A DNA stretch of 64,000 bases from Phyllosticta citribraziliensis (Eukaryota). Made by a program: the position numbers and the translations under genes. The notes under the pieces are model-generated. The model was not told the origin of the DNA and searched no databases. It saw only the letters and a list, made by a program, of their open reading frames with translations. The stretch is from positions 2,294,001 to 2,358,000 of the forward strand of contig NW_027117341.1 of assembly GCF_038025025.1 (NCBI RefSeq), read 5' to 3'. Shown one piece after another: positions 3,925 through 58,818 of the stretch. Position 1 is the stretch's first letter. Every line of letters starts with the position of its first letter.

Positions 3925-5056
3925 CTAGCTGAGCAGTACCGCGTCCAGCAGCCCGGTCATGACCTCGAGGTTGCGCGCCACGGCGGGAGCCACACTCATG
4001 GGATCGCCCGCGCGCGCCAGTGCCTGCAAGGCCGCCATCGTCGTCCAGCGCGCGCCGCCGTTGTCGTCGATGGTGCCCTCGCGCAGCCCGTCCGCCAGGC
4101 GCTGTAGCACCCTGACGTATTCCTCGAGAAACAGAAGCGCGTTCCTCAGAATCTGTATGGGCCCTTGGTCTTCCGTCAGACTGTTTGACAGCTCCCGCAT
4201 CGGGCGCAAAAGCTCCTTCGATTGGTCCCGGCGCCAAAAGCCGCCGTCCAGCTCGGGGCTCTCGATTGCCTCGATGAGAAACTCGTTCATGTGCTCAAGC
4301 TTCTCAACATTTTTCTGTTGCTCGTCAATGAAGTCCAAGGCCCAAATGGCGATGAACCGCGCTCACCTTGATGATGCGGACAATCCAGTTCAAAATCCTG
4401 AGCACCGTCTGCAGCTTTTGATCCACCCTGCCTAGCGTTTGTTGGAGATAAAGTAGGGCTGCGTCGGCGTCCACCGGCACGCGCTCGATTGCCGCCTCAA
4501 CGGTTGAAGCCGTCTCCTCGAGCAGCGCTTTTGCGGTCCTGGGGCTTTCGGCGGCGTCGTCGATGGCATTGCCCGCGCTCTCGAGGATATCAGGCGCGAA
4601 TTTGAGCAGGTAGAGTCCGTCCCGCAGCGACGTGTTCCGGGTCAGGGTACAGCTGTCTCCAATGGCGTGACTGACCGTGTGGGCGAGGTTCAAGTGTTTG
4701 TCGAGCCACCGAACCACGTCTCCCATATTGTTCAGGTGGGCCGAGGCCTGGACCGCTGCCATGTTGGGGTCGGCGTGCTTGATGATGGTTCTTGTAAAGG
4801 GAGGGGGGTGGGTCGGTCCGGCGGGAGGTACACGTTGTGGGAGGAGTGTGCGGGCGAAGAAAACAGCACCGAGAAAGAGGGCGGCGCAGGCCATGAGAGG
4901 ATGGTGGATCCAAAACAGCATCAGAGAGTTGGTGTTTCGGACGAGTTGGTCGTCGGCTACCCTGATGACCTGGCGAGCACGGTCTCGAAGTTGGTCGTCT
5001 ACATGGCTGGCTGGTGGGGAGCCATCTCTGGATGAGGCATATTCTCGATCCGCCAT
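3925..5056 (-). CDS. Single-pass membrane protein with long helical domain (family member A); intron 4366-4315
   Basis: ATG at 5056 (MADREY), TM segment LMACAALFLGAVFF. The GTGAGC..CAG intron fuses ORFs 4325.. and 3925.. in frame. Confidence 0.7.
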
Positions 5057-5559
5057 GTTGGCGGCAGCGGCGGATGATGTGTCTCGCGAAGTAGAATGGC
5101 GGTGCCAGCGTTGACCAAAGGGACGGCCAGCTTGTGGAGGACCAGGACGAGGCCAAGGAGGAGCCAGGAGCTGAAGGAGAGAGCGTGGACAAAGTCGTTG
5201 AGCGTAGCTGCGAGTGCGCGTCCGTTGCCGACGTGCGCCGCCTGGGCCAGGTCCATGTTGATGCACCGCGTCCACGCCAAGCACGCGTGTTCCAGCTGCC
5301 TGCGGCCCTGCGAGCAGCCGTAGTCGTGGTAGGCCTGGGCGCATCTTGTTATTTGCGTCAGGGCCTGCGCCGTGGCATGCATCGCGGCCGTCTGCCTGTC
5401 GCCTTGTACGGCATTGCAGCCGGCCCACACGGCCCACACGGTGCAGCACGCCCAGAAGAAGCGCACGCCCAGCTCGACGTACCGCGACAGGGTGCGCGGC
5501 AGCTGTGGGTGTGCCTCGACGTAATCGAGCAGCGAGCGCCACCACGCCGTGTTGTCCAT
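4999..5559 (-). CDS. brr6: Brr6/Brl1-family nuclear envelope protein (minimal, divergent)
   Basis: TM, then C-x3-Y-x4-C..C-x2-W-x2-C-x3-D (RCAQAYHDYGC..HACLAWTRCINMD), amphipathic ALAATLNDFVHAL, then a second TM. This matches the Brr6/Brl1 four-cysteine luminal domain. Confidence 0.8.
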   Translation of the reverse strand: MDNTAWWRSLLDYVEAHPQLPRTLSRYVELGVRFFWACCTVWAVWAGCNAVQGDRQTAAMHATAQALTQITRCAQAYHDYGCSQGRRQLEHACLAWTRCINMDLAQAAHVGNGRALAATLNDFVHALSFSSWLLLGLVLVLHKLAVPLVNAGTAILLRETHHPPLPPTWRIENMPHPEMAPHQPAM

Positions 5560-5867
5560 GTTGTTGTTTGTTGTTGTGGCTTGGAAGGGGGAGAGAGTGA
5601 AGTGGCCGGCCAAGTCTGCAGAATTCGAACAAAGGGGCCACATCTTCCCTCTTCTTCTGCTTTCGTCCAGTCGAGAACGAACAGTGATCATGTCCCCACT
5701 CTGACTCGTTGCTCTCGTCGTCCAAAAGCGTCTTTGTCTCGTCCAAGGCTCTCATTTTCCCACGTCGGTTTTGTTTTGTGCCTCAATCTTGACGTCTGCC
5801 GTCCCTCGTCATGCAATCACCTCCACTGCCGCATGTGTCGCGCAGTCATTCGTGGCCGCTGAGCGCA

Positions 5868-6651
5868 ATGGAGCGACGCTACAACCTTCGGCCGCTTGCG
5901 AATCGACGATACAGACGGGAGGACAGCAGCAACCATCAACCCCCTGACGAGCCCGACCGCGAAAAGATCTACGCCTGGAGCAGCAGCGGCTCTCAGTTTT
6001 CAGAAGAGCTTGTCGGTGTAGGCGCCTTGGGTACGAAGACTCGATCGGGTTGAAGGACGAAGGAACGCGCCTTTGGCTGACGCGTGGAATGCAGGGTATC
6101 CAGACTCGATCGAGACACGGCGACGCTTCTTCGGCCTCGGCGACAACAGAGTCGCCCTTGTCATAGGAACCATCGCCTTCATGGTCGGAGTGCTTGTCGG
6201 CAGCGTCCTGATGTGGTACCACTGCGCCACCACGACCGCGGCGAACGAGACCGCAGCAGCAGCAGCAGCAGCAGACTCACCCCAACAGCACCAACCACAA
6301 GCCCTGCTCGACCGCCTCGGTAAGGACCTGCAGATGTTGCACTGGAACTCGCTGCAGGCGCTTGGCGTGGCGTCGCCGCCGGGCGCCGCCGCCTCGGACG
6401 ACGACGTCAGCGCATGCCTTAAGACGATCGGCAAGAGCTACCGCTATTTCGGGGGCGTGTGGCATCCAGACCAATGCATATATCACAAGGCGGGCGTGCT
6501 GCACGAATGGCAGTGCAACGAGCTGTACAAGCAGGTGACGAACAAGGGGGATTCGGCGTATTACAGCTGCTTGGGCACGAAGCGACGCCTGGAAGTGTCG
6601 TCGCATGCCATGTGGCGCAGGGTGATGGAGGACGCAGCGGAGGAGGAGTGA
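5868..6651 (+). CDS. Membrane-anchored DnaJ/J-domain-like protein 1; intron 6031-6094
   Basis: A phase-1 intron GTACGA..CTGAC..CAG joins MERRYNLRP.. to ORF 6073. TM segment VALVIGTIAFMVGVLVGSVLMW. J-domain signature SLQALGV..AS..IGKSYR....WHPD..YKQV...AY. Confidence 0.75.
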
Positions 6652-6846
6652 AGTAAAGGAGTGTTCCCTGTCCATGTCAGTCTTTCTCGAGTCCATAAAA
6701 TTGTTGTTTTCTACTTGCGCACTCTTGATCCGTGAAGAAGACATCAACGTCGGCAAGCTTCTAGTGGCCAGGGCCATTTTGGACGACACAAAGAAGATGA
6801 AGCGTCGCCAGGGTCTGTCAGTGAGTCGGGTGTCAACGGGAGTGCC

Positions 6847-30419: not shown

Positions 30420-31430
30420 TTATGATGACTCGGGCCGCCTGCGCTCTTTCTCCCACTCGGGCCCAAGACCACCCTTCAGAAGCGAATCGCCCATGAGCCA
30501 GGCCAAGTGCCTGTTCCTGCGCACCGAGCGCTCTACCTCTTGGTCGATTTTGCGACGCTCCTCTTCCCAATCAAAAAAGTCTTGGTCACCAAAGCCAAAC
30601 CAGCCACGAGAGCTTCTTCGCAGCTGGCGGAAACAATCAGCAACCGTGTGGAATGGCTTGCTGAGCCTTTCGGCCATGAAGATGAGCTTGAAGTAGTCGT
30701 GGTCATCCATGTCCATGGCTTCATCCGGTGAAACTGGCCCATCATCCATCATGTCATCAACATCGAGGTCCTCGCCGTCGGCTAGAACGTCCAGATAGCG
30801 GCTCTTTTGCTCGTTCTGCAGGCATTGGAACCTCGCCGCCGTGTATGCATCGTCAAGTACACCCGCCACAATCAGCAGGTGGCGCTCAGAGAGATTGAAG
30901 ACGGCGCGGAGTCCCGGGGTGGATTGCGGGCCGCCCGGTGCCGTGCTTGTCGGGGGCTTTGCAACGCGATCCGGATGCCACAAGGCACGCACACGTCGAT
31001 AGCCTTTTCGAACAGCGCGGAGGCAGGCCCGGGACTCGGTGCTGTTCGGGGCGCGAGCGTTCTGCCAAGAGTCGGTCAAGTTGACTGGTGTGCCAAACAA
31101 GGTCCACGGATGCATCTGAGCCCCGTCGAGTCGCGGGCAGAGCCGAGGCAGTTGGAACATCCAGTCGAAGGCATCGGCTTGTGGAAGCATGGGAGGGGCA
31201 GGACAGACGAGTGTTGGCGGCGGCGGCGGCGGCGGCGGGGCGGGCGACGTGGCCAAGAAGTGGGCGAGCAGCGATACAAGCACGACCGAGGCGACTGTCG
31301 CGTATCCTGGAATGGGAAAGGGTCGGCGTAGAGAGTCGATCAAGGCGGAGAGCAGCGGCCAAGCTGGACGGGAGGCATTGCTGCCGACGCGGGCAGGGGG
31401 GCGTGCAGGGCGACGCTCACGCAAGGACAT
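30420..31430 (-). CDS. Membrane-anchored DnaJ/J-domain-like protein 2
   Basis: 336-aa ORF with TM segment ATVASVVLVSLLAHFLA and ACLRAVRKGYRRVRALWHPD..LDDAY. Confidence 0.75.
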   Translation of the reverse strand: MSLRERRPARPPARVGSNASRPAWPLLSALIDSLRRPFPIPGYATVASVVLVSLLAHFLATSPAPPPPPPPPTLVCPAPPMLPQADAFDWMFQLPRLCPRLDGAQMHPWTLFGTPVNLTDSWQNARAPNSTESRACLRAVRKGYRRVRALWHPDRVAKPPTSTAPGGPQSTPGLRAVFNLSERHLLIVAGVLDDAYTAARFQCLQNEQKSRYLDVLADGEDLDVDDMMDDGPVSPDEAMDMDDHDYFKLIFMAERLSKPFHTVADCFRQLRRSSRGWFGFGDQDFFDWEEERRKIDQEVERSVRRNRHLAWLMGDSLLKGGLGPEWEKERRRPESS

Positions 31431-31990
31431 GGTGTTGAGAATGGAGCGAAGGACGAGACACGAACAGAGGACGAGGACGAGGATGAGGACGAGGACGAGG
31501 ATGAGGACGAGGGAGGGCGAGTAGAGAGAGAGGTTTCTTTGTCTTGGTGTCCGTTTCCGGCGGCTGGGCCGGCGGCTGGCCGTCGCCCTGCAGATGGAGA
31601 TGGCGCCATGTCTCGGCTGTCTGTGTGTCTGTCTGTTGATGGCCGTCGGTCGTTCGTTTGCTTCAGTGGGGTGCAGTGGGTGGTGTGGTGTACAAGCAGT
31701 GAGTGAGTGGTTGGTTAAGGGACGGAGAAGGAGATAAGGTGGAGGGAGTACATGTCCGCTTTAGGCTCACCGCCGACGTCAACCTCGCCTCTGAAACTGA
31801 TAAAGGTACTAAAGGCAATGCAATCTAGCTATTAGATTGGACCAGACCAGTCTCGTGCTTTAGGGCCTGTCCTCAAGTTGCCGACTTGGTTGCATTTACT
31901 ATGCATCCAACTACCACGATTTGTCGCCATTCCTGATCCACTCTTCTAGCGCCGCCAAAGGTGGAATCCATTGCCCATGGTTGCGGCAAA

Positions 31991-32865: not shown

Positions 32866-33297
32866 TCAGAAATCGCCACCAAAGCCACCCGAAGCCCGAA
32901 TGCGTCGTGCCAGCTGGATATCCGCTTGCTTGATGGTCACGCGCTTGGCGTGCATGGCGCAAAGATTGGCGTCTTCGAAGAGCGACACAGCACAGGCCTC
33001 AGCGACCTCTTGGAGAGCCATGAGCGCCGATGACTGCCAACGGAGCGGAGCTGAGCCGGGCCTGGTCATGGAGGCAGTGATTTCGCGGACCTGGTGTGGA
33101 ACAGGGGGTCAGCGGCGGCACATGTGGAGGCCAGATGCACGTACAAGTCTCGCGAAAGGCGCCTTGCACACGAGGAGCTCGGTGGAGCTTTGGTAGCGTC
33201 GAATCTCGCGCAGTGCGAGTGCGCCTGGCTTGTACCTGCGGCGCTGCTTTGGCTGGGGTTGCGTTTGCTGTCTTGTTGGCTTCGACTTGGGCGCCAT
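32866..33297 (-). CDS. cenH3: Centromeric histone H3 variant (CenH3/Cse4/CENP-A), 125 aa; intron 33144-33091
   Basis: Spliced fold [83 protein letters not shown]. Shows the CenH3 diagnostics: A at H3-Q68, W at F84, non-T at T107, longer loop 1, non-canonical tail, GG-containing C-end. Confidence 0.9.
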
Positions 33298-33661: not shown

Positions 33662-34345
33662 ATGCACGATGACGAAGACGACGACGACGACGACGACGAA
33701 AAAAGCGAGGATGACGTCTCACTCCACACAAAGCTTGCCCAGACCCAAGGACTGCTTGGCGCTCGCATCCGGGCCATATGCAACAAGTACGAGCGCGAGG
33801 CCATGCACGCACAATACGAAGCAGACGAAATTGACCTGGAAACATTGGAGGTTGTGACGGACAATGGCCATCTTCGCGGCATACAGGATTGGGACGACCG
33901 GGTCGACGACATGGAGGGTCAGGGGGAAGGGGAAGAGGAAGAGGAGCCGCAACGCGAAGAGGCGGCCCAAAAAACAGCATCCCCCGTCGCCGCCGTCGCA
34001 CAACGAGACGAGCCAACGCGACGCGGGTGGACTGCCGAAGAGAAGGCGCTGGTCGTAGACTTGCGCGACGAGCAAAAGCTGCCGTTCCTAGCCATTGCTG
34101 CACGGTTTCCCGGGCGGTCGGTCGCAACCGTCATCGCAAAGTACCACCACCTGAAGAAGCGAGGCGGCAGCGGCGGCGGCACAAGGATGTACAGGGTCTG
34201 GACTACTGAGGAAAAGTCGCTGCTCTGGAATCTCCGCAGTCAAGGCTGCGAATTCAAAGCAATTGCCGAGCGCCTGGGAAGAGCGGTGCCACAGGTCGTC
34301 ACTCGCTACAGGTCGCTGAAGAGGGAACATTCAGTCCGTGGGTGA
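33662..34345 (+). CDS. scm3: Scm3/HJURP CenH3 chaperone with two C-terminal Myb/SANT repeats
   Basis: LLGARIRAICNKYE..ADEIDLETLEVVTDNGHLRGI is the Scm3 signature (I..KY..DEIDL.T..V.DNGHLR). WTAEEK..IAARFPGRS..KY and WTTEEK..IAERLGR..RY are Myb repeats. A GTGAGT at 34342 could extend the gene. Confidence 0.9.
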   Translation: MHDDEDDDDDDDEKSEDDVSLHTKLAQTQGLLGARIRAICNKYEREAMHAQYEADEIDLETLEVVTDNGHLRGIQDWDDRVDDMEGQGEGEEEEEPQREEAAQKTASPVAAVAQRDEPTRRGWTAEEKALVVDLRDEQKLPFLAIAARFPGRSVATVIAKYHHLKKRGGSGGGTRMYRVWTTEEKSLLWNLRSQGCEFKAIAERLGRAVPQVVTRYRSLKREHSVRG

Positions 34346-35242: not shown

Positions 35243-35610
35243 GACAAGAGTACCAATACCACGTCCACGCCGCGCGCCCAGACATCCACCACGTCTCCTG
35301 CCGATGACGAATACCTTGGAAATACGAGCGAAGAGCCCAGCGCCCCAAAATTGCTGCGCCAGAGCGCCAGTCGCTCGTTGCTGAATCGCCAGGGGCGAGA
35401 AGAGCAGGCGAACAAGCAAACCGCAGCAGTCTCGTCGGGACAAGAGTACCAACACCACGTCCACGCTGCGCGCCCAGACATCCACCACATCTCCTGCCAG
35501 GGGCGAGAAGAGCAGGCGAACAAGCAAACCGCAGCAGTCTCGTCGGGATAAGAGTACCAATACCACGTCCATGCCGCGCGCCCAGACATCCACCACATCT
35601 CCTGCCGATG
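35243..35610. repeat. 108-bp tandem duplication plus a partial third copy
   Basis: AGGGGCGAGAAGAGCAGG.. at 35391 and 35499; shared AAGAGTACCAAYACCACGTCCA block three times. Confidence 0.85.
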
Positions 35611-36039
35611 AAGGTGATCCATATACTGGGGAGACACTCTGCGGCTTCTCCTCCCATTATGAGAGCAGAGACCCACCACAACAACACCAGAACCAAAATC
35701 AACACCCACTAGACCGGCAACACAACGCCACCTCAACAACACCCGGCCCTCGCCTCTCCAACGTCGACCCCCACCGGTTGTCCCTGACTACGCTCCTTTC
35801 CCTCCTTACCCGCCCTGGCACAACGCCAACCGCGAGACCGCTTCCGTCAACACTACTCCTGCACCCAAAAGGCACCACTCCAGCTTTACCCTCAATGCGG
35901 CGGGCGAGATTCAATTCGATTCACCTTCTGTACGCAGCGCGCTCAGCCCATTTCGTCCGCCACGGCCGCTGGCAGCCTTGACGCGCTGCGCACGCTCGGC
36001 GCCTCGCGCAACGCCTCGCCATCGCCGCAGCCGCCATCG

Positions 36040-36590
36040 CAGCGCCCGTCAATCTTGACATCTTCGAGACCAGCAGCCTCGACGCACTGCGCACGCTCAG
36101 CAGAGAATCCGCTCGCCGCTCACTCCCGGTAGTTACCTGCCAGTATCGTCAGCGCCCGTCAATCTTGACATCTTCAAGACCAGCAGCCTCGACGCACTGT
36201 GCACGCTCAGCAGAGAATCCGCTCGCCGCTCACTCCCAGTAGTTACCTGCCAGCATCGTCAGCGCCCGTCAATCTTGAAATCTTCGAGACCAGCAGCCTC
36301 GACGCACTGCGCACGTTCGGCAGAGAATCCGCTCGCCGCTCACTGCCGGTAGTTACCTGCCAGCATCGTCAGCGCCCGTCAATCTTGACATCTTCAAGGC
36401 CAGCAGCCTCGACGCACTGTGCACGCTCGTCCAAAGACTCCCAAGGCATACGCTGTGACTACACCCCCCAAAGTTCATCGTGGCCAGCGTCAGAGAATCT
36501 GCTCGCCACTCGCTTCCAGTATATTTGCCGGTAGTTCCCAGCCGGCATCATCAGCGCCCGTCAATCTTGACGTCTTCAAGACTAGCTTCA
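36040..36590. repeat. 110-bp tandem repeat, ~4.5 copies
   Basis: AGCGCCCGTCAATCTTGA at 36041, 36151, 36261, 36371 and 36553. Confidence 0.95.
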
Positions 36591-36659
36591 CGCGAATGAG
36601 AAAGAGACCCTTTAATTCCTTCAATGAGGAGGACCAGTCCCTGAGCAAGTATTATAAAA

Positions 36660-37365
36660 AAGTTTGAACCGACGCGGGCGCGACCAGACCGGACATACTT
36701 CATGGTACTGCTAGGGTGCGCAATGTGATGCCCCTTCCTCACGCAACACCATATACGGATTCCGGCACTACCATCAAGCCCTCTGCGAACCTCGAGCATT
36801 CGTCGCCAAGGACAAGATCTCCGCGAACGACAAGATCTCCGCGAACCTCGACCAGATCTCCGCGAACCTCAAGCATTCGTCGCCAAGGACCAGTCGCCGA
36901 GCAAGTATTTCAAAAAAGTTCGAACCGACGCGGGCGCGACCAGACCGGACACACTTCAAGGCCCTTCGCGAACCTTGAGCATTCGTCGCCAAAGACAAGA
37001 TCTCCACGAACCTCGAGCATTCGTCCCCGAGGACAAGATCTCCGCGAACCTTGAGCATTCGTCACGGACAAGATCTCGGCGAGCCGCACAATCTCAGACC
37101 CAGAGCCCTCCGTGAACCTTGAGCATTCGTCGCCGAGGACAGATCTCCGCGAACCTCGACCATTCGTCCCCAAGGACAAGATCTCGGCGAGCCGCACAAT
37201 CTCAGATCCAAAGCCCTCCGCGCACCTCGAGCATTCGTCGCCGAGGACGGATCTCCGCGAACCTCAAGCATTCGTCCCCAAGGACAGATCTCTGCAAACC
37301 TCGAGCATTCGTCCCCAAGGACAGATCTCCGCGAACCTCGAACATTCATCGCCAAGGACAAGATC
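36660..37365. repeat. 37/38-bp minisatellite (TCTCCGCGAACCTCGAGCATTCGTCGCCAAGGACAAGA), ~11 copies with higher-order duplications
   Basis: Directly visible; the unit length is not a multiple of 3. Confidence 0.9.
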
Positions 37366-42867: not shown

Positions 42868-44725
42868 ATGGTCCGTCCGGCCAGGGAGCCCGTCATACAG
42901 TCTGATCTCATGACCCCCGTTACAAGATCCATTTCCGGGCGCTCTGTCGCCCCGAACAGCAACGAAGCCGCCGACGATGAAGACCACTCCTCCAACAGCA
43001 GCGATGGTGACTCAGGGTCTGAGAGCAACGACGGCCAGAACGGCCCGCCCTCCCGCTTTGTAGGAACGACGGAACAATTGGCCGCGTCCAGATGGAAGCT
43101 CATGGGCGAACACGCCTACAATTCACGCACATTTGTGACCCAGCTTAGAGAGTGGGCCCATCAAGGAACCTGGACTTTGGATGAGCTGGTGGAGCAGATG
43201 CAAGCGGTCCGCTGGGGAGAGAACTCAGAGCAGCAGACACTGAAGCGCGTCACCAAGAAACACATGTACACCGTCGGCGTTCTGTATGAGTGCCTGGCGC
43301 GTGCACACAGCAGGGTCAAGAGTTGTCTGTGAGGAACCTGGCCCCGAAGCTGAAGCGCAAGTCAACTGGTGACACCGATGACTCGGACGAGCCTGAGCAC
43401 CATCCGACCAAGCGACGAAGAAGGGCGGAGAAGAAGCAGACACGGGATGCGAAGAAGAGATCGGATACACGGAGCACCCAGTATGCGCCTGAGTCACCAC
43501 GGACAACCCGATCATCCCCATCTGTTGAACATGGACGTGGTGGAGACGCCGATCTCGACGATATGCCACAGTCCAGCAGGCCATCTCCGTTGTCGTCTCT
43601 GTCGCCTTCAGCGCGGCACGCCTCTCCATCGCCTCCGCGGGCGCCGTGGACGCCTCAATGGCATGAGTTCAACTTGGATCTAGAAAATTCAGATGTACGG
43701 CAACACGGCCAGTATGACGACAATGATGGTGATATCTTGGACGCACTATCAGATTCGGATTTACAACAACACGGCCAGGACGACGACAACGATGTTGATG
43801 TCTCGAGAGCACTATCAGATTCTGAAATTGAGGCGCTCTTGAGGATCTTTCTGCCATGAAGTTGCCAGCTGTGGCCCGCTGCCACTTGGGATGCTGCTAT
43901 CCAGGATCCAAACTCGACGCACTTGGCCGTGGCGGTCCGTCCGGCTGGCGCCACCAGAGGTTGGGCCATCTTGGTGTTCGACCTCTTGAACAGCACATGC
44001 ACCAACCTGAGCCCTCGGGCTGACCAAACTCCACTAATGATGATCTATGAAAGACTCCTACCTTTGCCCTTGCAGCGCAAACTCGGTGCAGAGACAGTCA
44101 TACTAGACGGCATCCAACACGCCCAAGCCCTCGACAGTGGCACCTACGCACTAGTTGGAGCCCTCTTTTATCTCTACAGCACTGTGCAGCCCAAGGAGGT
44201 GGAAGGCAATCTATGGAGGTACATGGTTCCAGCAACCTTGGCTGAGTATAACAACCCGGGCGTCGACAATGTTGGACTGCCTCCTAAGGTCTTAGACGAC
44301 GCCACTATCACCTATAGAGAGGATCTCATCAATACCGACCCGGCCGCATTGGACTACTAAAGCCTAGGGTGCCTTAGTCATAATATTTAGATACACGCGG
44401 CTAACCTTTAAGGAAAGCTATAGGTCCTTAATAATAGTATAAATCTAGACACGCTATAAGCCGTATTTAGAGTAGTAAAGTAGGACTTAACTAAGCATCA
44501 TAATATATTAGAGAAGGAAAGTAAATAATACTAGAAGTAGATAGCATCTATTAAGATAGTAAAGGAGTTTATAGGATAATATAATAAGTATAGAGACTTT
44601 AGTAGTACTATTAGTAAGTAGGAAATAATAGTAGCCTAGCTAGTATCTTCTCTTAAAGGTACCTACTACTAGCTAGATAATACTATTAATACCCTAAGAG
44701 CTACTTAGGCTAGATAGAGGGTAGT
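42868..44725 (+). pseudogene. Degenerate Ulp1/C48-peptidase-like gene with coiled-coil tail, progressively RIP-mutated
   Basis: ORFs 43290 and 43923 share a frame, split by TGA at 43857; frameshift near 43325. Motifs LSDSEIEALL, GWAILVFD and QHAQALDSGTYAL echo WLND.II, HW.L.V.D and QQ.N..DCG. After 44358 the frame continues with TAA/TAG where Gln codons fit. Confidence 0.5.
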
Positions 44726-45049
44726 AAGTTAGTAGATCTAAACTAATATAAACCTACTAAAAAGGGTATTATAGGATATTTTAGCTAGGTTATAGGTAGT
44801 TTAGGCTAAGATATAGAAGATAGATAATAAGTTTTAGACTATAAATAAGGACCTTATTAATAGTAATAGTAATAATAATAATACTTTTACTAGTAGCTAG
44901 CTAGTATCCTTTTATTTACTCTTAGATATAGACTTAATATAGTATTAATAGTTAGGAAGAATATACTTAGTTAGAGCCTAGACTATATATAGATAAGGAT
45001 TATCTAGTAAGAACTCTCTTAGTTAGTAAGAATAATAATTCCTAGCTAT

Positions 45050-45605
45050 TATAGTACCTAGTAGAGGAAATTAATACTAACTATAAATAATTAATAGATA
45101 GAAAGTAAGAGTAGTTATTATATAGCTAGTATAGAATAACTATCTACTTATAAGCTAAGTAACTAAGGCTAGTATATATATATATATATTACTAAGTACT
45201 AAATACTATAAAATATAAGTTATATCTTATATTTATATAGTACTACCTTTCTCTTCTAATAAGAAATATCCTTATTACTTAGTTATCTAGTAAATTATTA
45301 TCTAGAGATAAGAGTACTATTTATAATATATTATAATAATATTATATATAGTATTAAAGTCTCTATTATCTTTACTATAAGAAGCTAGATCTATTTAATA
45401 GTTTATCTAGTTAATCTTTAATTAAAGCCTACTAATAGCTATTAGCTAGTACTCTATAATCTCTTTAATCTTCTACTTATTATCTATATTATTCTAGTCT
45501 TATAAAGCTAGACTCTTAGCTAGCTATTATCTAGATAGTATATTATTACTAGTAATAATAAGCTATAATATATTAACTTACTATAAGTTTATAAGCTAGT
45601 AGATA
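45050..45605. repeat. Unidentified RIPped repeat, also at ~60280-60860 and partially at ~62010-62190
   Basis: Shared TAATTAATAG..AGTAAGAGTAG.TATTATATAGC..AGAATAACTAT blocks at three places. Confidence 0.7.
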
Positions 45606-45779
45606 GTTATTTTTTATTTATTTTTTATTTATTTAATTAGTTTAATATACCTCTTAAGTCTAAGACTAAAAGAAATAAGGATACTATTCTAATTATACTA
45701 AAATAGCTAATATATTATATAGTCTAGTAGGTTAAAACCTTATTAGATCTATATATATATTATATTATATACTAAATAA

Positions 45780-47690
45780 ATTAAACCCTAAATTTCTTAC
45801 TAAGACTAGTACTAGTTAAAAGAGAAGAGTTATATAATAATCTTATTCTATAAGGTTTAAATAGTTTTAGTACCTTCTAGGTAACTTTTAGATAAGCTTA
45901 CTATATAAGCTTATAAAATAGAATTAGGTAGTTTAAATAGTATATTTCCTATTCTAATCTAGTAACTTATTAGTAAGATATTTAAAAGAGAAGAAAATAC
46001 TTAAATAATATATCCCTATAGAAGATTACCTAGTAGATAGATAAACTTTAGAATTACTAGATAATTACTATAGGCCCTAAGATATTATATAGTAATATTT
46101 CTTAGACTTAGTTACTCTCTAATCTACTCTAATTTTAGGGGCCTTTCTATATAAAGACCTTACTAGGACCCCTACCTACCTAATAGGGACTAGAGTACTA
46201 AATACCTTATATATAGATTCTATACTTCTATATAGTAGAAGTCTAGAATATCTTTTAGAATCCCTATATCTTTAATATTAGTTAAGTTATTATTAGTTAA
46301 AACTTTTAAAGTTATTATAAATAATAATTTCTTCTACTAACTTTATTTATTTAAGGAATATAATAGTTCCTTAGTACCTAACTAAAACTAAGTTTTATTA
46401 GAGAGTTAGTTTTATACTAGGTATAACTCCTATATAATTATATAGATAGTAAGATAACTCCTATATATTTATATAGAGAGAATATTTCTCTCTATAATTT
46501 TTATTAGGTACTAGGCTCTAAATTAATTAGGCCTTATAAATTATATAGATAGTTAGAAAACTACTAGTTAGTAGAGTATATTCTTTCTAGTTATTCTATT
46601 TATTAGTTAGGTACTACCTAACTTACTAGTATTCTCTTTATTAGAAAGAATATACTTAATTAGAGAATTAGGTCTATTATTATATAATAGATACTAGTTC
46701 TCTTAGTAATAGAGAAAGGTATATAAGAAGGCCTTAGGTCCCTCTAGATAGCTTCTCTAATAATAACTCTTTTTATCTCTTCTACTTTACTAAATTTACT
46801 CTTTTTACTTAAAAGACTTTTCTCTATCTATTTAAGACTACTAGTCTACTAAGACCTATATTCTATAACCTACTAGTAAATAGACTAGAAGGGTATAGAG
46901 GTATATTTCTTAGTATAGGCTTCTATAGTAGTCTTCCTCTATATTAATACTAAAATAAGGCTATACTTCCTTACTTTAGTATTCTATCTAAGGGAATCTA
47001 GGGGGAATATAACCTCTACTAGCTATAATCCTATCTTAAATACTTATATAATAATATATATTTATTATATAGAGGGGACTAGGCTCTAGTATATAGTAAT
47101 ATCTACTTAGAGGCTAATTTCTCTCTAAGTAATTACTTAACTATTTAAGGATTATATAAGAGGATAAGGTACTTAGAGAAATTATCTATATATCTAAGTA
47201 GTCTTAGCTATTAAGCCTACTTATAGGGATAGCCTAGGTGATACTATTATAAGTTAATATATCTAAAGCTCTAATTTTTAGCTCTCTAACTATACGTGCT
47301 ATTATATAGGAAGGGGTAGAAAGTTATAAGAAAAGAGGAATAACTTTATACTCTCTATATCTCTATAAAATATTATCTAATTAGAATAAAAAGTAGTCTT
47401 ATTTACTAATAAATTTAACTTTAAAAGAGCCATATCTATCTAGCTAAATAAAGATAGATTAGGTATATATACTAAGAAGCTTATTCCTACTCCTAAGACC
47501 TATAAGTATAAGAATAACTAATAGTTTAGATACCTAGAAAATAGGTATAAAAGGCCTATAATTTTTAGAGTATATATAGATACCTATACTACTTTCTAGT
47601 ATTTTTATAGGACTAGTAGCTACCTAAAAGGGTAGGTCTATAAGTATATAGAACCTAAATAAACTAATTATAGTAAAAACTACTAATTTA
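45780..47690 (-). mobile_element. RIP-degraded LTR-retrotransposon internal relic, possibly Ty1/copia integrase region
   Basis: Minus-strand LDRYGSF..YFLF*LDNIYR can be de-RIPped toward D.CGPF..YFL..VDD..R. Weak. Confidence 0.3.
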
Positions 47691-48351
47691 GCTATAAAAG
47701 ATATCCTAAATTCCTAGTAAATACTAACTTAGAGTTAGTATTTAATATAATATAGTATACTAAGGATAGTAGTATAGAGTTTATACTATATATAAAGTCT
47801 ATATTAGGGGAATTAGCTAATTCTTTTAATAAAAAATACTCTACTTTTAGGGAGGCCTTATTTTCTAAGTCCCCTAATACTACTCCTATTATATAGAATA
47901 GTTATATCTCTAGTAATAGATAGAAATAGCCTAAATTAGACTCTAAAAAACTAGAGCTAGCTTACTTTACTTAAATTTAAGGGAAAATACTAGGTCCTAA
48001 TACTATATATATATTATAAATTAAGATCTAATTAAAGCTACATATTTATTTATTTATTTAGTTTAACGTGCCTCTTAAGTCTAAGACTATAAGAGATAAG
48101 ATAGTTATCCTAGGCTCTCTAGGTCGCTTATATAATTTATAGCCTATTAGGTTAAAACTATATTAGGCATATATATATAGCTACTACTTCTTTATAGGTT
48201 TTTAATAGTTATAATTAGATATTTTAAGCTAAGCCCTTATAGGAAAATTACTAAAATAGTAATTTATATAGAAATAAGTAAAAACTAAGTGAGTGTAATT
48301 TTATGAAGGAAATGGTAAGGTTTTATAACTAGAGGAGTAAGATATATAAAG

Positions 48352-48475
48352 ATATTTATTTATTTAGTTTAACATGCCTCTTAAGTCTAAGACTATAAGA
48401 GATAAGGATGGCTATCTTAGTAGTTCTATATAGCTTATATAGTATATATCCTATTAGGTTATAACTATGTTAGGA

Positions 48476-48515
<40 letters not shown>

Positions 48516-51500
48516 CCGTTCTTATTTTTAGTAGTTATAATTAGACATTTCAGGCCTAGCCCTTATAGGAAAATTACTAAACTAATAATATAAGTAGAAA
48601 TAAGAAACGGTTAAAGGAGTGTAGGTTTATAAAGAAAATAGTTTAGTTTTATAGGTAGGGGAGTAAAATATATAAAGATATATATATATATATATCTCCC
48701 TTTAACTCCTTAACCCTACTACGTAGTAGATTCTCTTTTAATATACTACTATTTAGTAGCTATATTAGTCTTTTTAATAAATGCTAAGGTAGCCTTTATA
48801 GTTTCTAAGTTTTTAAATAGGTTTTTTATACTTAGGGAGGGGATATCCTCTCTAAGTAATTTTCCTTATTTACTATACTCCTATATATCTTTATAACTCC
48901 TCTACCCTACTATATAGGAGGATCTCTCTTAATATACTACTATTTAGTAGCTATATTAGTATTTCTAATAAAAGCTAGAGTGGCCTTTATATTTTCTAAA
49001 TTCTTTAAATAGGTTTTTATACTTAGGGAAGGGATATCCTCTCTAAGTAATTTTCTTTATTCTTTATACTCTCTATAAGATAGTAGAAGGTAGAAAGGAG
49101 TTTCTTTAGGACTACTATCTCTATATAGACAATTTATATATGTAAGGTAGGTTTTTAAGTAGCTATATCCTTATTTTTAGCTAATAAAAAGCTAAGGCTA
49201 TAGTTTATAGTATTCCTATAGGTACCTTAAGCTTATAGCTAGGCCTAGTTATATAAGTACTATAGTAGGAGGAGGTATTATTAGATTTAGCTTTTACCTT
49301 ATCTATAATAGCTTATTAGTCCTATATAATAGTATCCTTTATATCTAAGCCTATAAGTACTAGAGCTTTAGAGTAATTCTCTAGCTCTTTATTAGTTACT
49401 TCCTTAGCTAAGGAATTAGCTAATTTATTTCTATATATATCTATATAGTTAGGTACTAATTTAAGTACTATAGAAGTACCTTTAGAATTAGCTAGTTTAG
49501 CTACCTCTAGGGACCTAATTTACTAGGATTAGCCTAGATTATTAAATAGATTAATAATTCTATATATAGTAGCTTAGTTATATATATATTTATAGTATAT
49601 ATATCTATTTTTTATAGTCCTATAAGTATATTTAAGTACCTTAGTAATACCTTCTTACTCCCTATCATATACTAGGTTAGAATCTCCTATATTAAGGGTT
49701 TCTAACCTACTATCTAATAGGTTATTAGATAATACTACTAAGCCCATATCTATACCTTTCCCCATAGTTAGACTAGAGGTATTAGTATAGATATAGGTAG
49801 TATTTAGGCTTTTACTTTAGCTATTAAGGTCTAGGTACTCCTAATAGGCTTCCTCTTTATTAAGAGAACTAATCCTATAAGAGAAGGGTAGGGATTTACC
49901 CTAGGGAGGAAAATAAAAGTATTTAATAAGTTCTAGGTAGTAGCTATCCTCTATATAAATACTATTATATAGATATTCTATCTAGGTAAGTCTCCTAGGT
50001 CTATTCTCTATAGAATTAATTCTATTTAATTCTTTAGGCACTAGATAGGTACTAGGGAGTTCTAAGGTCCTAAATATATACTTTTTAATAGTAGTACCTA
50101 GTCTAAGCTTAGCCTACCTCTATTTCTATAGCTTTAATAGGAATAGCCTTTAAAAAACCCTAGAATCTTTTATAATACTAGATTCTAAATAGCTTTTAGA
50201 GTTTTAAGTAGATAGTCTATTCTCTTAGGCTTATACTATAATTAGTAGCTATAGTCTATAATACTAATCATATGCGTTATATATAACTATCTTATAGTAT
50301 AAGCGCTAAGGCCTAAATTAATAGTAGTAAGCCTATTAAGCTAAAATAGGGTATTCCTTACTTTAGAAGCTAAAATATTAAAATATTATTTATATTTTAG
50401 CTTATTACTAAAGTAGATTCCTAACTAGTAGATAGTCTCTTTAGGCGTAATAATACTACTATCTAGAAGGATAATAATACTATCTTTTACCTTATTCTAG
50501 CTAGTAAAGTATATTAAGTCTATCTTAGATAAGTTAAATTTAATACCCTTTATAGCACCTAGTTTATAGAGCTATTTAGTTTCTCTCTCTAGTATTTTTA
50601 GGTTTTTATTTATACTAGTAGATAACTAGAGAATAATTTAGAGATATAACTTAGAAAGAGTATAGGAGATATAGGACTACCTTTTAGAATACTAGTCTCT
50701 ATATACTTAAACTCTTCTATTTATTTATTAAATGATACTCTTAAAAGTCTATTATTTAAGAAACTAGATACCTAGCTAATAAGTAATAGTAGGAGTCCTT
50801 TTTTCTTTAATAATAGTAGGAGATTATTTTTAACTATATAGTTAAAAGCACCTCTATATCTAAAAATAGTATTAAGGTAAGTCTATTAGATAGCTTATTC
50901 TCTTCTACTATATTAGATAGTATAAGAGTAGTATCTATAGCTAATTTCTTAACTCTCCTACCTATTTAACTAGGGTATAGTAAATAGGTAGTTTTAGCTA
51001 GATAGCCTAATCTCTTAGCTATAATTCTTAATTTATTTTTCTAAGGTAATTTAGTAAAGATATAACTATATAAGACTTAGGATAAGTATAGTCTAGTTTA
51101 TTAGATTTCTTTAAAATTATACCTATAGCTTATCTCTATAATTTAGGGTAATAGCTATTCTTAAATAGTAGACTAAATACTCTAAAAAACATTTTAGAAT
51201 AGGTCCTATAGGCAGCTATAAATAGATCTTAATTTATAGTATTAGGACTAGGCATTTTCTCTTTAATTTAAGTAGAGTAAGCTAGCTTTAGTTTCTTAGA
51301 GTCTAATTTAGGCTATTTATATCTATTATTAGAGATATAACTATCCTATATAATAGGAGGAGTATTAGGGGGCTTAGAAAATAAGGCCTCTCTAAAAGTA
51401 GAGTATTTTTTATTAAAGAAATTAGCTAATTCCCCTAATATAGACTTTATATATAGTATAAACTCTACTCTACTATCCTTAGTATACTATATTATATTAA

Positions 51501-51540
51501 ATACTAACTTAGAGTCTATACTTAGTAGGAACTACTACTA
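48352..51540 (-). mobile_element. RIPped Tad1-like LINE (RT + RNase H), 5'-truncated
   Basis: The minus strand gives GSPISPILFL (~50660-50690, RT QGSP motif) and VPNYIDIYRNKLANSLAK (~49400-49460, de-RIPped WVPGH..I.GNE.AD.LAK). 3' tail of (TAAA)n. Confidence 0.85.
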
Positions 51541-51850
51541 ATATTTAAGGTAACTATCTACTACTTATATTATATCTTAAGCTTCTTAGAAGAGTAGCTA
51601 ATAATATATTTAGCGTATAGTCTATTAGCTAAGACTATATAGACGGCTAATAGCACGAGGAGGAATTAGTTTATAGCGCGTAATAGCTACTTACTCCGCC
51701 TACTCCTTACTAGATAGTAGTATAAAGTATTAAAAATAGGCTCTATAATACTATTATAAATAGAAAGATATATAAATAGTAAGGAAATATAGTAGAGAAA
51801 TATAGTAAAGGTATGTATATAGTAAAGGTATATATATAGTAAAGATATAT

Positions 51851-53005
51851 ATTTATTTATTTAGTTAGTTAGTTATTTATTTATTTAGTTTAATATTACC
51901 CTTAAGTCTAAGAATATAAGAGATAAGGATATCTATCCTAATAGTACCTTAAATAGCTAATATATTATATAGTCTAGTAGATTAAAACCTTATTTAATCT
52001 ATATATATATAGCTTATTCTTTCTAAAGGGAGTTTTTAATAATTATAGGTAGATATTTTAGGCCTAGCCCTTATAGAAAAATTACTAAATTAGTAATATA
52101 AGTAGGAATAAGTAAGTACTAAAGGAGTATAAAGTTATAAAAATAGTATAGGCTTATAGATAGGGGAGTAAGATATATATATATATATATATATACCTCC
52201 TTACCTCTATATTTTAGAGGGTCCTCTCTCTTTATAATACTTTTTAGTAGCTATATTAGTACATTTTATAAAGGCTATACTAGCTTTTATATTTTCTAAA
52301 ATTTTAAATAGTTTTTAAAACTTAGATAGAAAATATCCTTTCTAAGTAATTTTCTCTATTCTCTATACTCCCTATAAGATAGTAGGATATATAGAGGGGT
52401 TTCTTTAGAACTACTATATCTATATATACTAGTAGAAGACCTATTAATATATAATAGATAGGATTTAAAGTAGCTATATCCTATTTTTAGCTAGTAAAAA
52501 GTAGATGCTATAGGTCTTAGTATTCCTATAGAGACCTTAAGCTTATAGCTAGGCTTAGCTATAAAATTACTATAGTAGAAAGACTTATTAGTAGATTTTA
52601 CTATAGCCTTATCTATAATAGCTTACTATTCCTTACTAGTAGTATCTTTTATATATAAGCCTATAAGTACTAGGGCTTTAGAGTAATTTTCTTACCCTTT
52701 ATTAGTAACCTTCTTAGCTAAGAAATTATCTAAATTATATATATATATATATAGCTTAGAATATATTCTAGTACTATAGAAGTACCTTTAAAAGACTATT
52801 ATCCTAATTTACTAGGACTAGCCTAGACTACTAGAAGGATTATTTATCCTATATATAGCAGTTTAGTTATCTATCTATATAGTATATATATCTATTTTAT
52901 ATAATTCTACTAGTATATTTAGATCCCTTAGTAATACCTTCTTATTCCCTATATAATACTAGACTAGAATACTCTATATTTAGAGATTTAGACCTACTAT
53001 TTAAT
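51851..53005 (-). mobile_element. RIPped LINE 3' portion (RNase H to tail)
   Basis: Colinear with 48352-49720, with the same TTTATTTATTTAGTTTAA tail. Confidence 0.8.
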
Positions 53006-53968
53006 CGGTTTATTTACTTATTTAGTTTAATATCCCTCTAGAGTTAAAGAATATAAGAGATGAGGGTTTCTAAGGCCCTAAGTATCTATTAGCTATAGAA
53101 ACTATAGGTCTTCTAGCTTCTTTAAAAAGTAAGAAAGAGACCTATACCTTAATAGTAGTTCCTTCCTAGTAGAAAATTAAATAGTTATAATAGGATATTT
53201 TAGACCTAGCCCTTCCTTATAGGTATAATAAAGAGAGACTATAGTTAGTAATACCTTAAAAAATAAAGAAAAGGTAGTAAAGAATAGTCTAGAAGGGTCT
53301 TCTATAGGTCTCTTTAAACTACTAGTATACTATTTAGTATATCGAGTATATAAAGAACTAGAAGGAGGCTAGGAGAGTTTTATAAATTAAAAGAAATAGT
53401 TAAAAGAGTAGTAGATATTTTCTTTTAAGGAAAGGAGTAGAAAAATAAGGGGTTTTTAAATGAAATATTTTTTAAAGGGGTTTATAAGAGGGCTAATAGT
53501 AAGAGTAAAGTATATCTACCCTTAAATATAGACTAGCTATAAATAGACTATTTTTAATAGCCTTTTTAGCCATAGATTTAGTAGAAAAACTAAGTAAAAT
53601 AGAAGAAAACTTCTTTTTTCCTATTCTTTAGGGGGTATAAGATAATAGGAGGTATCTATAGGTACTAGGCTATTATTATATTTATAAATCTTCTTAAAAA
53701 GAGTAGCCCCTAGGTTAGGTAGAGAGGAGAGGTTTCCTTAGTAGATATTCTATAAATAGCTACTTTAAACTAGTATTTAGATTTAGTAGTAGCTATAAAT
53801 AGAATAAGAGTAGACTACCTAGCCTAGTAATCTAGTAGAAAGGTACTAGTATACTATAGTATAGTAGTAAGTACTATATTTCCCTTTAGAGAAATAGTAT
53901 ATAAGGTAAGGGGTAGGTTCTTTTCTTCTTAAAAAAAGAGAATTAAAATAATCCCTTAGTCTACTAAG

Positions 53969-54557
53969 TGTTAAGGGCTAGCTAGAAACCTATAATTATA
54001 TTAAATACTACTTAGTATTAAGTACTAGGCGTACCTATACTATAACTACTACCTATAACTATAAGCTATATATACTAAAGTTACCTAACTCTTAAAGAGC
54101 TACTTAGCTACTTAGGCTATCTAACCCTATCACCTATATATATAATACTAATATAATAATAGAGATAAGAATAATACCTCCTATATATATAATAGGGACT
54201 TAACTAAGTAGTTAGTTTTAAGAAGTATATTACTACTATTAAGCTAGTAATCTACTATATAATATAGGATTAAGATAGAGTCTTATTCTCTTATAGTACC
54301 TACCTTTCTTCTTTTATAATTCCTAAGGTAATTTAGGTAATAGAATATAAAAAGATCTTATTATATAGATACTATAGATAGCTATCTTTATTTTCTTATA
54401 ATTAATACTTCTAGGTAGACTTACTACTAATTTAACTTCTACCTTATTAATATACTCTTCTTACTTAGCTTTATCTCCTATACTTATATACTCTAGTACT
54501 AGGTAAATAGTTACTTAGAACTAGCCTACTAATTAGGTAACCTATTAGCTTATAATA
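53969..54557 (+). mobile_element. Solo LTR (~590 bp) with 5-bp TSD CTAAG
   Basis: TGTTA start, TAATA end (RIPped TAACA), and CTAAG on both flanks. Confidence 0.85.
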
Positions 54558-54719
54558 CTAAGAGAGAAATTATAAGATAGTAGAATATTTAATAGATTAT
54601 TAGTTAATTTTACTAAGCCTATATCTATATCTTTACTCTTAGGTAAACTAGAAGTATTAGTCTATATATAGATAGTAGTAGGACTTTTTCTTTAAACTAG
54701 TCCTATAAGAGAATAGTAG

Positions 54720-54900
54720 TAATTATATAAAATATATCTTCTTAACTATAACTAAGTAAAATATACCTTCTTAATTTTAAATAAAATATATCTTCTTAAC
54801 TATAACTAAGTAAAATATACCTTCTTAATTATAAATAAATATACCTTCTTAATTATAAGTAACTAAAATATACCTTCTTACCTATAACTAATTAAATTAT
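54720..54900. repeat. ~29-bp tandem repeat (AAATATACCTTCTTAATTATAACTAAGTA); inverted copy of the array at ~62520-62720
   Basis: Directly visible at both sites. Confidence 0.8.
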
Positions 54901-54914
54901 ATTAGAGAGGATAT

Positions 54915-55504
54915 TATTATAAGCTAATAGATTACCTAATTAGTAGACTAGTTCTAAGTAACTATTTACCTAGTACTAGAGTATATAAGTATAGGAGATA
55001 TAGCTAAGTAAAGAGGGCATATAAATAAGGTAGAAGTTAAATTAGTATTAAGTCTACTTAGAAGTATTAATTATAAGAAAATAAAAATAGCTATCTATAG
55101 TATCTATATAATAAGATCCTTTTATATTCTCTTATCTAACTTACCTTAGAAAATATAAAAGAAGAAAGGTAGGTACTATAAGAGAATAAGATCTTATCTT
55201 AGCTATATATTATATAGTAGATTACTAGCTTAATAGTAGTAATATACTTCTTAAAACTAACTATATAGTTAAGTCCCTATTATAGGTATAGGAGGTACTA
55301 TTCTTATCTCTATTATTATATTAGTATTCTATATATAGGTACTAGGGTTAATTTATCTAAGTAGCTATATAGCTCTTCTAGGAGTTAGGTAACTTTAGTA
55401 TATATAGCTTATTATTATAGCTAGTAGTTATAGTATAGGTATACCTAGTACTTAAAACTAAGTAGTATTTAATATAATTATAGGTTTCTAGCTAGCCTAT
55501 AATA
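54915..55504 (-). mobile_element. Solo LTR of the same family, inverted, with 5-bp TSD GATAT
   Basis: Reverse complement of 53969-54557; GATAT on both flanks. Confidence 0.85.
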
Positions 55505-55859
55505 GATATCTCCTCCCTTAGTATTAAAATTATAGTTAAAGACTTAGAAACTATAAAGAATATACTAGCCTTTATTAGACTTTAATTCCTACTACCCCTA
55601 TTAGAACCTCTATAACCTAGAATTATTAAATTCTACTAGGTTAGTAGAATAGATTAAGTCTAAGAATTTATCTCTAGTAAATAGAATAGGTAAAGGTATA
55701 CTCTATAGGCCTAATCTAGCTAGAGGGTTAATTATAGAATTAGTATTTACTACTTTAGATATTCTAGAGAAAATATATAATCTAACTATTATAGTATATT
55801 ATTTACTATCTATAATTCTAACTCTTTACTAGTAAAGAACCCTACCTATATTTAGAGAT

Positions 55860-58787: not shown

Positions 58788-58818
<31 letters not shown>

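Follow-up and report, generated by a model that had tools for sequence, protein, structure and literature searches.

A transcribed gene for a short Brr6/Brl1-domain protein

We analysed a 64,000-nucleotide stretch of fungal DNA (contig NW_027117341.1, positions 2,294,001 to 2,358,000; hereafter the window), in which a minus-strand gene encodes P0001, a putative short paralogue of the Brr6/Brl1 family of nuclear-envelope proteins. The sequence of P0001 is identical to an annotated 186-amino-acid protein in NCBI/UniRef, located on a contig of 2,499,641 bases. The gene and its leader have the following limits:

4999..5559, minus strand: coding sequence of P0001, a 186-amino-acid Brr6/Brl1-domain protein; ATG at 5559, stop codon 4999-5001 included; intronless
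5560..5602, minus strand: 5' leader of P0001, up to the end of an RNA-derived contig

Transcription was assessed with contigs from X1 and X2, public sequencing runs from two studies of one organism, whose records mark them only as 'RNA?'. Contigs of both runs skip 4315-4366 (GT..AG, minus strand); X2 contigs also skip 6030-6093 (GT..AG, plus strand), and one contig ends in a run of A at 6717. Because of these exon-exon joints at GT..AG introns and the loose A-run end, the contigs are taken to be derived from RNA. Contigs from both runs span the P0001 open reading frame (ORF), and an X2 contig follows the genome colinearly and unspliced over 4367-5602. Therefore, the ORF is intronless and its leader measures about 43 nt; the same contig rules out splicing of the P0001 ORF onto the ORF downstream of it. 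The GC content at codon positions 1, 2 and 3 of the P0001 frame (0.66, 0.50 and 0.81) is a coding pattern, which is missing when the strand is read in either of the shifted frames, and the third-position value (GC3) is the highest of the seven window genes compared. Thus, the P0001 gene is real and transcribed.

Competing gene models were considered and rejected. Two long ORFs that overlap the gene, 4325-5755 on the minus and 5134-5862 on the plus strand, have no Pfam match, and the codon-position pattern favours the Brr6 frame; such ORFs on both strands are taken as by-products of the high GC content. In a second assembly the same gene is modelled as P0002, a protein of 214 amino acids that starts at the upstream in-frame ATG at 5643. 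This ATG lies outside the X2 contig, which ends at 5602, and a related organism (organism B; X5) has lost 2 nt at 5596, a position that lies between the two ATGs. Therefore, the 186-amino-acid model is the better one.

The contig of organism B was aligned with the window over 4000-6210, with 153 differing letters and 95 gap letters. The indels listed for this alignment inside the P0001 ORF are -1, -2 and -6 at 5071-5076, adding up to -9 in the C-terminal tail; a further +18 behind 5549 repeats the first codons of the ORF. Those in leader and intergenic DNA are -2, -12, +6, +1 and -1. The downstream gene has -2 in its intron, and -27 and +3 in its exons. This is the pattern expected of two coding frames that have apparently been kept by selection.

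Family membership and domain architecture

P0001 was matched by the Pfam family PF10104 (Brr6_like_C_C) with an E value of 1.1e-18 and 67.8 bits, against a gathering cut-off of 25, and the match covers residues 25-141 of the protein and positions 1-121 of the 133 in the model. This is far beyond chance and bears out the family assignment of the preliminary description, made from the letters of the window and its ORFs. That description had also ascribed to the protein both transmembrane segments (TMs), four luminal cysteines and an amphipathic helix, all of which were recovered in an alignment of 112 sequences (P0001 and 111 relatives) and in an AlphaFold2 model built on it. The resulting feature map, in which the disulfides are predicted, is as follows:

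5512..5550, minus strand: short helix preceding TM1 (residues 4-16) and, after it, a conserved H-P-x-L-P turn (P18, P21); from alignment and model
5407..5472, minus strand: TM1 (about residues 30-51), the helix continuing into the lumen to residue 79; from model and hydrophobicity
5263..5343, minus strand: disulfide-stapled hairpin region with C73, C82, C93, C99 and W96; from the alignment, codons checked
5293..5304, minus strand: hairpin tip R86-R87-Q88-L89, the site of the Phi-P-A-Phi loop (Phi, hydrophobic residue) in relatives; from alignment and motif count
5179..5226, minus strand: luminal amphipathic helix (about residues 112-127); from model and hydrophobic moment
5089..5175, minus strand: TM2 (about residues 129-157); from model and hydrophobicity
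5002..5088, minus strand: C-terminal tail, 29 residues, rich in proline and modelled with low confidence; from alignment and model

All five invariant columns of the alignment are kept in P0001, namely P21 and the four cysteines, and so are W96, D103, A117, N121, F123 and S128. The cysteine signature C-x8-C-x10-C-x2-W-x2-C is present as well; four cysteines in this arrangement were found in 243 of the 260 stored proteins, five of the 260 being unrelated ORFs of the window. In the model of P0001 (mean predicted local distance difference test score, pLDDT, 81.5) helices span residues 4-16, 20-79, 87-100, 104-110, 112-126 and 129-159. The canonical protein P0003 (503 amino acids), folded in the same way, is disordered up to about residue 240, followed by five core elements at 246-256, 261-319, 328-342, 345-366 and 370-398. 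In these models, the helix layout of P0001 is the same as that of the P0003 core, and P0001 therefore begins where the folded core begins. Both membrane segments, which belong to the predicted helices 20-79 and 129-159, are at least as hydrophobic as those of P0003, the mean Kyte-Doolittle values being 1.30 versus 1.20 for TM1 and 1.93 versus 1.61 for TM2. The amphipathic segment at 114-129 has a hydrophobic moment (muH) of 0.41 and a hydrophobicity (H) of 0.57, compared to 0.49 and 0.72 for the P0003 helix.

Brl1 has been described as a protein with two membrane helices and a luminal domain in which four cysteines form two disulfides; its luminal helix is long and continuous, and its amphipathic helix is essential (PMC9402233). 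The anatomy of P0001 matches this description. A sequence search of the PDB with P0001 gave only two irrelevant PLK4 rows (E 0.13-0.14). A Foldseek search of its model against the PDB gave 0 matches at E <= 0.001, and the best score that VIA-align reached over 48,161 chains, a Z of 6.3, came from long helices of a generic kind. No relative with a solved structure was found, a result that has no bearing on the fold.

The long N-terminal region is absent

Only 29 residues precede TM1 in P0001, and the C-terminal tail has the same length. When five long and short relatives were compared with the window by tblastn, they matched only the core, at 5164-5547; the N-terminal parts of the relatives gave nothing better than E 0.066 anywhere in the window. 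The N-terminal motifs conserved over 62 canonical proteins were likewise not found in P0001 by alignment. The X2 contig ends at 5602 and the transcript of the divergent neighbour starts by 5720, which therefore leaves no room for a large upstream exon. An exon of this kind, supplying a long N-terminus, is thus ruled out by tblastn and the ends of the RNA-derived contigs. As had been proposed, the region is truly absent from P0001 and not hidden.

The accompanying statement that a long N-terminus is usual in the family is correct for the canonical proteins, but a short form is known: Brr6 of Saccharomyces cerevisiae is described as a protein of 197 amino acids with tails of 53 (N-terminal) and 15 (C-terminal) amino acids, while yeast Brl1 has 471 amino acids and a 299-amino-acid N-terminal extension, which is essential and contacts Nic96 (PMC13043894). 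A nuclear export signal (NES) has also been described for the Brl1 N-terminus (bioRxiv 10.1101/2025.07.21.665908). The family thus already includes a short form; new are a short form outside Saccharomycotina and a short form without the docking loop. Our literature search found no paper on Brr6 in Phyllosticta or on a Brr6 duplication in Pezizomycotina.

The docking loop is lost and conserved positions are changed

Two properties had escaped the preliminary description. One concerns the hairpin tip. Brl1 and Brr6 are reported to form ring oligomers that dock head to head across the lumen via the Phi-P-A-Phi loop, and mutants in this loop are lethal (bioRxiv 10.1101/2025.07.21.665908). The loop reads L-P-A-L in P0003 and M-P-A-M in P0013, a short protein introduced below. 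P0001 has no residue in the proline column (94% P) and a Q in the alanine column (85% A), and the spacer between the second and third cysteine, SQGRRQLEHA, is one residue shorter than that of P0003. Of the 243 four-cysteine proteins, 218 contain an x-P-A-x motif. P0001 and P0002 belong to the 25 that lack it; most of the remaining 23 retain a proline at this site. P0001 has therefore lost the docking loop, a hydrophobic Phi-P-A-Phi (PAL) motif.

The other property is divergence, which is extreme. Nine of the 14 positions that are invariant in the 62 canonical proteins are kept by P0001, and five are changed (Q to E29, N to Y80, R to H109, I to T119 and K to S130). The tyrosine at residue 80 is shared with P0013, at a site where 97% of the alignment has N.

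Relatives and tree placement

A HMMER scan over 1.84 billion representatives at E <= 0.001 yielded 339 matches. Only P0001 itself scored below 1e-30; the best other match was P0003 (E 4.2e-23, 40% identity), and all remaining ones are at most 33% identical to P0001. Its nearest relatives are the canonical Phyllosticta proteins P0003 and P0156 (508 amino acids), with 38-42% identity. P0156, with 84% identity to P0003, represents a cluster of nine member sequences that is named for P. citribraziliensis; the canonical proteins that come next, from Macrophomina, Lasiodiplodia, Diplodia, Neofusicoccum, Saccharata and Aplosporella, are 41-50% identical to P0003. From P. citribraziliensis also comes P0013, a PF10104 protein of 185 amino acids that has no close relative of similar length. 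Therefore, this species has both a long and a short copy. In word-based searches for homologues in the near length range, P0001 was its own only match among 232 candidates, and P0013 among 150.

In a quick tree of 147 rows, P0001, P0003 and P0013 group together with a Shimodaira-Hasegawa-like approximate likelihood ratio test (SH-aLRT) value of 82. A more careful tree of 25 rows joins P0001 to P0003 and P0156 with a support of 98/100. The end branches of this tree measure 3.05 for P0001, compared to 0.05 for each of the two canonical proteins; P0013, on a branch of 5.56, is unplaced. Over the core, P0003 and P0156 are 91.6% identical to each other, P0001 is 38.5% and 37.8% identical to these two, and P0001 and P0013 are 28.0% identical over 132 columns. 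Constrained trees were compared with the free tree by log likelihood (lnL) and the approximately unbiased (AU) test. Joining P0001 and P0013 changed lnL by +0.95 (p-AU 0.565), and joining all four Phyllosticta rows by +2.60 (p-AU 0.696), both constraints doing at least as well as the free tree. Orthology of P0001 and P0013 is thus neither shown nor rejected by these comparisons of aligned sequences. Further short entries occur among the best 150 of the 339 matches; they have short branches next to long proteins and look like fragments, at least P0028 and P0046 being without an initial methionine.

Most fungi are reported to have one BRL1/BRR6 gene, and the pair of a long and a short protein to have arisen in Saccharomycotina (bioRxiv 10.1101/2025.07.21.665908). 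The trees contain no labelled yeast sequence. In the free tree P0001 joins the canonical Phyllosticta proteins, and this 98/100 grouping argues against orthology with Brr6 of Saccharomycotina; an older origin of P0001 is not rejected by the AU test (p-AU 0.203).

Genomic neighbourhood

The window consists of GC-rich DNA of fungal type up to about 44.4 kb and is AT-rich beyond. Two genes flank P0001 directly:

3925..5056, minus strand: downstream orphan ORF encoding a membrane helix and a long helical part; intron 4315-4366; no Pfam and no Atlas match
5720..6717, plus strand: divergent orphan neighbour encoding a single-pass membrane protein; intron 6030-6093; loose A-run end at 6717; no Pfam match

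The downstream ORF may start at ATG 5056, which lies, in another frame, within the last 57 nt of the P0001 ORF, or at a later methionine near 4921. It shares an X2 RNA-derived contig with P0001, and overlapping contigs exist in X1; the two genes could form a dicistronic or overlapping transcription unit. The gap between the P0001 transcript and the divergent neighbour is about 117 bp (5603-5719). Since the intron 6030-6093 includes the ATG at 6073, the divergent neighbour probably starts at 5811.

The preliminary description had placed the gene in an accessory cluster. This is not supported as stated: the contig is 2.5 Mb long, the locus (4000-6431) is also present in organism B, and the window holds a histone resembling the centromeric H3 variant CenH3 and an Scm3 gene. 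Pfam matches were obtained for four of the 371 stop-to-stop ORFs of at least 70 amino acids (the 101 ORFs of 60-69 amino acids were left out), and these represent three genes, encoding the Brr6-like protein, the H3-like histone (two exons) and a protein with Scm3 and Myb matches; known domains are thus nearly lacking in the GC-rich 44 kb. Among ten window ORFs looked up, five are annotated proteins, all of them singletons at 90% identity. An all-against-all BLASTP comparison of 472 window ORFs revealed no paralogous gene families; self-similarity came only from repeat arrays at 35.8-37.5 kb and from the AT-rich block. The region is therefore rich in orphans and fast-evolving; what it carries of CenH3 and Scm3 looks like the ordinary genes.

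The H3-like histone (32869-33297, minus strand) lies head to head with the Scm3 + Myb protein (33662-34342, plus strand), 364 bp apart. It has two exons, with the ATG at 33297 and the second exon ending at a stop at 32868; the Histone matches of the two exons have E values of 2.6e-11 and 8.8e-21, the Scm3 match one of 1.2e-09. Because of its short N-tail, which is not of the H3 type, and its longer loop 1, by our own reading of the sequence, the histone looks like CenH3. Scm3 is the chaperone family of CenH3. Several tandem arrays lie at 35388-37365, where no genes were recognised; their repeat units measure 108-110 bp (2-3.6 copies that match at 89-96%) or 37 bp (10.9 copies). At 44400-64000 the GC content drops sharply to 25%, and no ORFs of at least 110 amino acids occur. 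Indices of the type used for repeat-induced point mutation (RIP) are extreme, at 1.74 for TpA/ApT in this block, and 0.04 for (CpA+TpG)/(ApC+GpT) versus 1.26 elsewhere in the window; the block may consist of degraded repeats or be a region of centromere type. Finally, the unrelated orphan ORFs 6073-6651 (plus strand) and 30420-31430 (minus strand) each contain a 'YR...WHPD' stretch reminiscent of the HPD motif of J-domains. No Pfam family was found for either of them (6073-6651 at E <= 0.1; 30423-31760 at E <= 0.001), and BLASTP detected no similarity between the two.

Origin of P0001

Judged from its relatives, P0001 is very probably a paralogue that stands beside a canonical copy. The earlier claim of an extra copy is made probable by the nesting of P0001 in the tree, the pair of long and short proteins in P. 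citribraziliensis and the norm of one gene per fungus. For the origin we favour, with somewhat more than even confidence, a lineage-restricted and fast-evolving short paralogue that arose by duplication in Phyllosticta and is built like Brr6 of budding yeast. The canonical gene of about 500 codons would have been duplicated in the Phyllosticta lineage, which is the most likely origin of P0001; one copy would then have lost the disordered N-terminal region of about 240 amino acids and most of the C-terminal tail, and subsequently evolved very fast.

Several observations weigh against this interpretation. The paralogue status is deduced from relatives. A tree with P0001 outside the canonical Botryosphaeriales is not rejected (lnL -5.77, p-AU 0.203), so that the duplication could also be older. 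The tree placements are fragile because both short forms have long branches and the composition of P0001 is deviant. The changes at five of the 14 canonical-invariant positions and the lost docking loop would also fit a decaying gene. The apparent frame conservation in organism B was read from listed indels and not from substitutions, so that a stop codon could be present there. In X2, the P0001 ORF is contiguous with the downstream gene, and the contigs do not prove an mRNA of its own; the gene is known from DNA and RNA-derived contigs, not at the protein level.

If P0001 were the sole Brl1/Brr6 gene of its organism, it would be a diverged orthologue without the N-terminus that does the full job by homotypic interaction. 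Such an orthologue would also sit with the canonical Phyllosticta proteins in the tree, no canonical copy has been located in this genome, and a single gene is what is reported for most fungi (bioRxiv 10.1101/2025.07.21.665908). But the canonical cores of two Phyllosticta groups are 91.6% identical, whereas P0001 reaches 38% with either of them, and P. citribraziliensis carries a long and a short copy together. Canonical-type proteins with more than 50% identity to P0003 occur in two clusters only (13 sequences), which leaves room for this organism's copy. Moreover, a sole copy lacking both the N-terminus, which is essential in yeast Brl1 (PMC13043894), and the loop, whose mutants are lethal (bioRxiv 10.1101/2025.07.21.665908), is hard to reconcile with these reports. 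We therefore regard a sole gene as highly improbable.

The two remaining alternatives accept a duplication and differ in its age and fate. P0001 could be a transcribed duplicate without function on its way to loss, whose fold signature survives since the duplication is too young. This would account for the very long branch, the deviant composition, the changed invariant residues and the loss of the docking loop and both terminal regions; within the protein collections, P0001 is limited to two assemblies of one organism, and it may simply ride on the transcript of the downstream gene. Yet, despite a divergence of about 60% from the parent, the 558-nt ORF has neither stops nor frameshifts, and the listed indels of organism B preserve the reading frame within the ORF but not outside it. 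The four cysteines, both prolines, W96, D103, N121, F123 and S128 are kept, GC3 tops the seven window genes, the AlphaFold2 model is confident, and P0013 retains the same core, all of which makes decay rather unlikely. Alternatively, P0001 and P0013 could be orthologues that go back to an old short paralogue, which may predate the genus and was kept in few lineages and elsewhere was lost or is unannotated. In favour of this, the two short proteins agree in length and layout, are carried by contigs of comparable length (2.50 and 2.47 Mb) and share the N-to-Y change at residue 80; the tree that joins them is not worse than the free one, and neither is a position of P0001 outside the canonical Botryosphaeriales rejected. 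However, they are only 28% identical over the 132 columns, long-branch attraction could join them, the free search places P0001 with the canonical Phyllosticta pair at 98/100, and no other diverged short clade was found among the best 150 of the 339 matches. We consider an old paralogue possible, though doubtful.

Comparison with known systems

In its design, the short paralogue resembles S. cerevisiae Brr6. The tails of P0001 are short (29 and 29 amino acids, versus 53 and 15 in Brr6), and yeast Brr6 exists beside a long Brl1 that carries an N-terminal targeting region (PMC13043894). Both have two TMs, a helical hairpin stabilised by disulfides, and an amphipathic helix in the lumen (PMC9402233). 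Unlike Brr6, which stems from a duplication in Saccharomycotina, P0001 nests with the canonical proteins of Phyllosticta, the two having been compared without a direct alignment; the likeness would therefore be convergent. A second difference is that Brr6 needs its Phi-P-A-Phi loop (bioRxiv 10.1101/2025.07.21.665908), which P0001 has lost.

With P0003 and P0156, P0001 shares the cysteines and the P-x-x-P turn, and of their proline-rich motif after TM2 it keeps a remnant. These proteins differ from it by their disordered N-terminal region of about 240 amino acids with conserved motifs, a C-terminal tail of at least 85 amino acids and an L/M-P-A-L loop; in addition, they are slow-evolving, as seen from their nearly identical cores, whereas P0001 is fast. 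P0013 has the same minimal layout, nearly the same length (185 versus 186 amino acids), the PF10104 domain, a very long branch and the tyrosine at N80, and it coexists with the canonical copy P0156 in P. citribraziliensis. In contrast to P0001, it keeps its M-P-A-M loop and a K after the amphipathic helix, and the identity of the two is low (28%). A more distant parallel is metazoan CLCC1, a protein needed for pore assembly which has a luminal amphipathic helix between membrane helices, and whose hydrophobic loop also diverges from the fungal motif; compared by description, it differs from the family by a third membrane helix and by having no sequence relation detectable in ordinary searches (bioRxiv 10.1101/2025.07.21.665908).

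Possible function and significance

By its architecture, P0001 would insert in the membrane of the endoplasmic reticulum (ER) or nuclear envelope, with the hairpin and the amphipathic helix in the lumen. It may be able to bind or deform the membrane and possibly joins the ring oligomers of the family. Because it has neither the N-terminal region nor the Phi-P-A-Phi tip, P0001 is unlikely to be a stand-alone fusogen at sites of pore assembly. It more plausibly plays an auxiliary or modulating part of the Brr6 kind, beside the canonical copy. A complex prediction for the P0003 core (240-420) and P0001 (1-165) scored 0.01; it gave no answer and was not used either way.

Brl1/Brr6 has been described as a nuclear-envelope fusogen (bioRxiv 10.1101/2025.07.21.665908). 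As a speculation, to which we give a low probability, P0001 might represent a second independent birth of a 'short partner': a duplicate of the Phyllosticta lineage, reduced to a core that has no loop but retains the amphipathic helix and the ring-forming body, could modulate or slow down membrane fusion in the lumen, for example by mixing into or capping canonical rings away from pore-assembly sites, and maybe it is co-transcribed with the downstream orphan membrane protein. If a separate lineage has indeed made its own short copy, it would be a natural replicate of the long/short specialisation in Saccharomycotina. The docking loop is kept in P0013 and lost in P0001, which makes P0001 a natural counterpart of the engineered loop mutants. 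The gain is moderate, as this is one fast-evolving gene of a narrow lineage whose function is deduced from its architecture. Even so, P0001 could help to separate the functions of the Brr6/Brl1 core, that is, insertion and ring formation, membrane remodelling driven by the amphipathic helix, and docking across the lumen.

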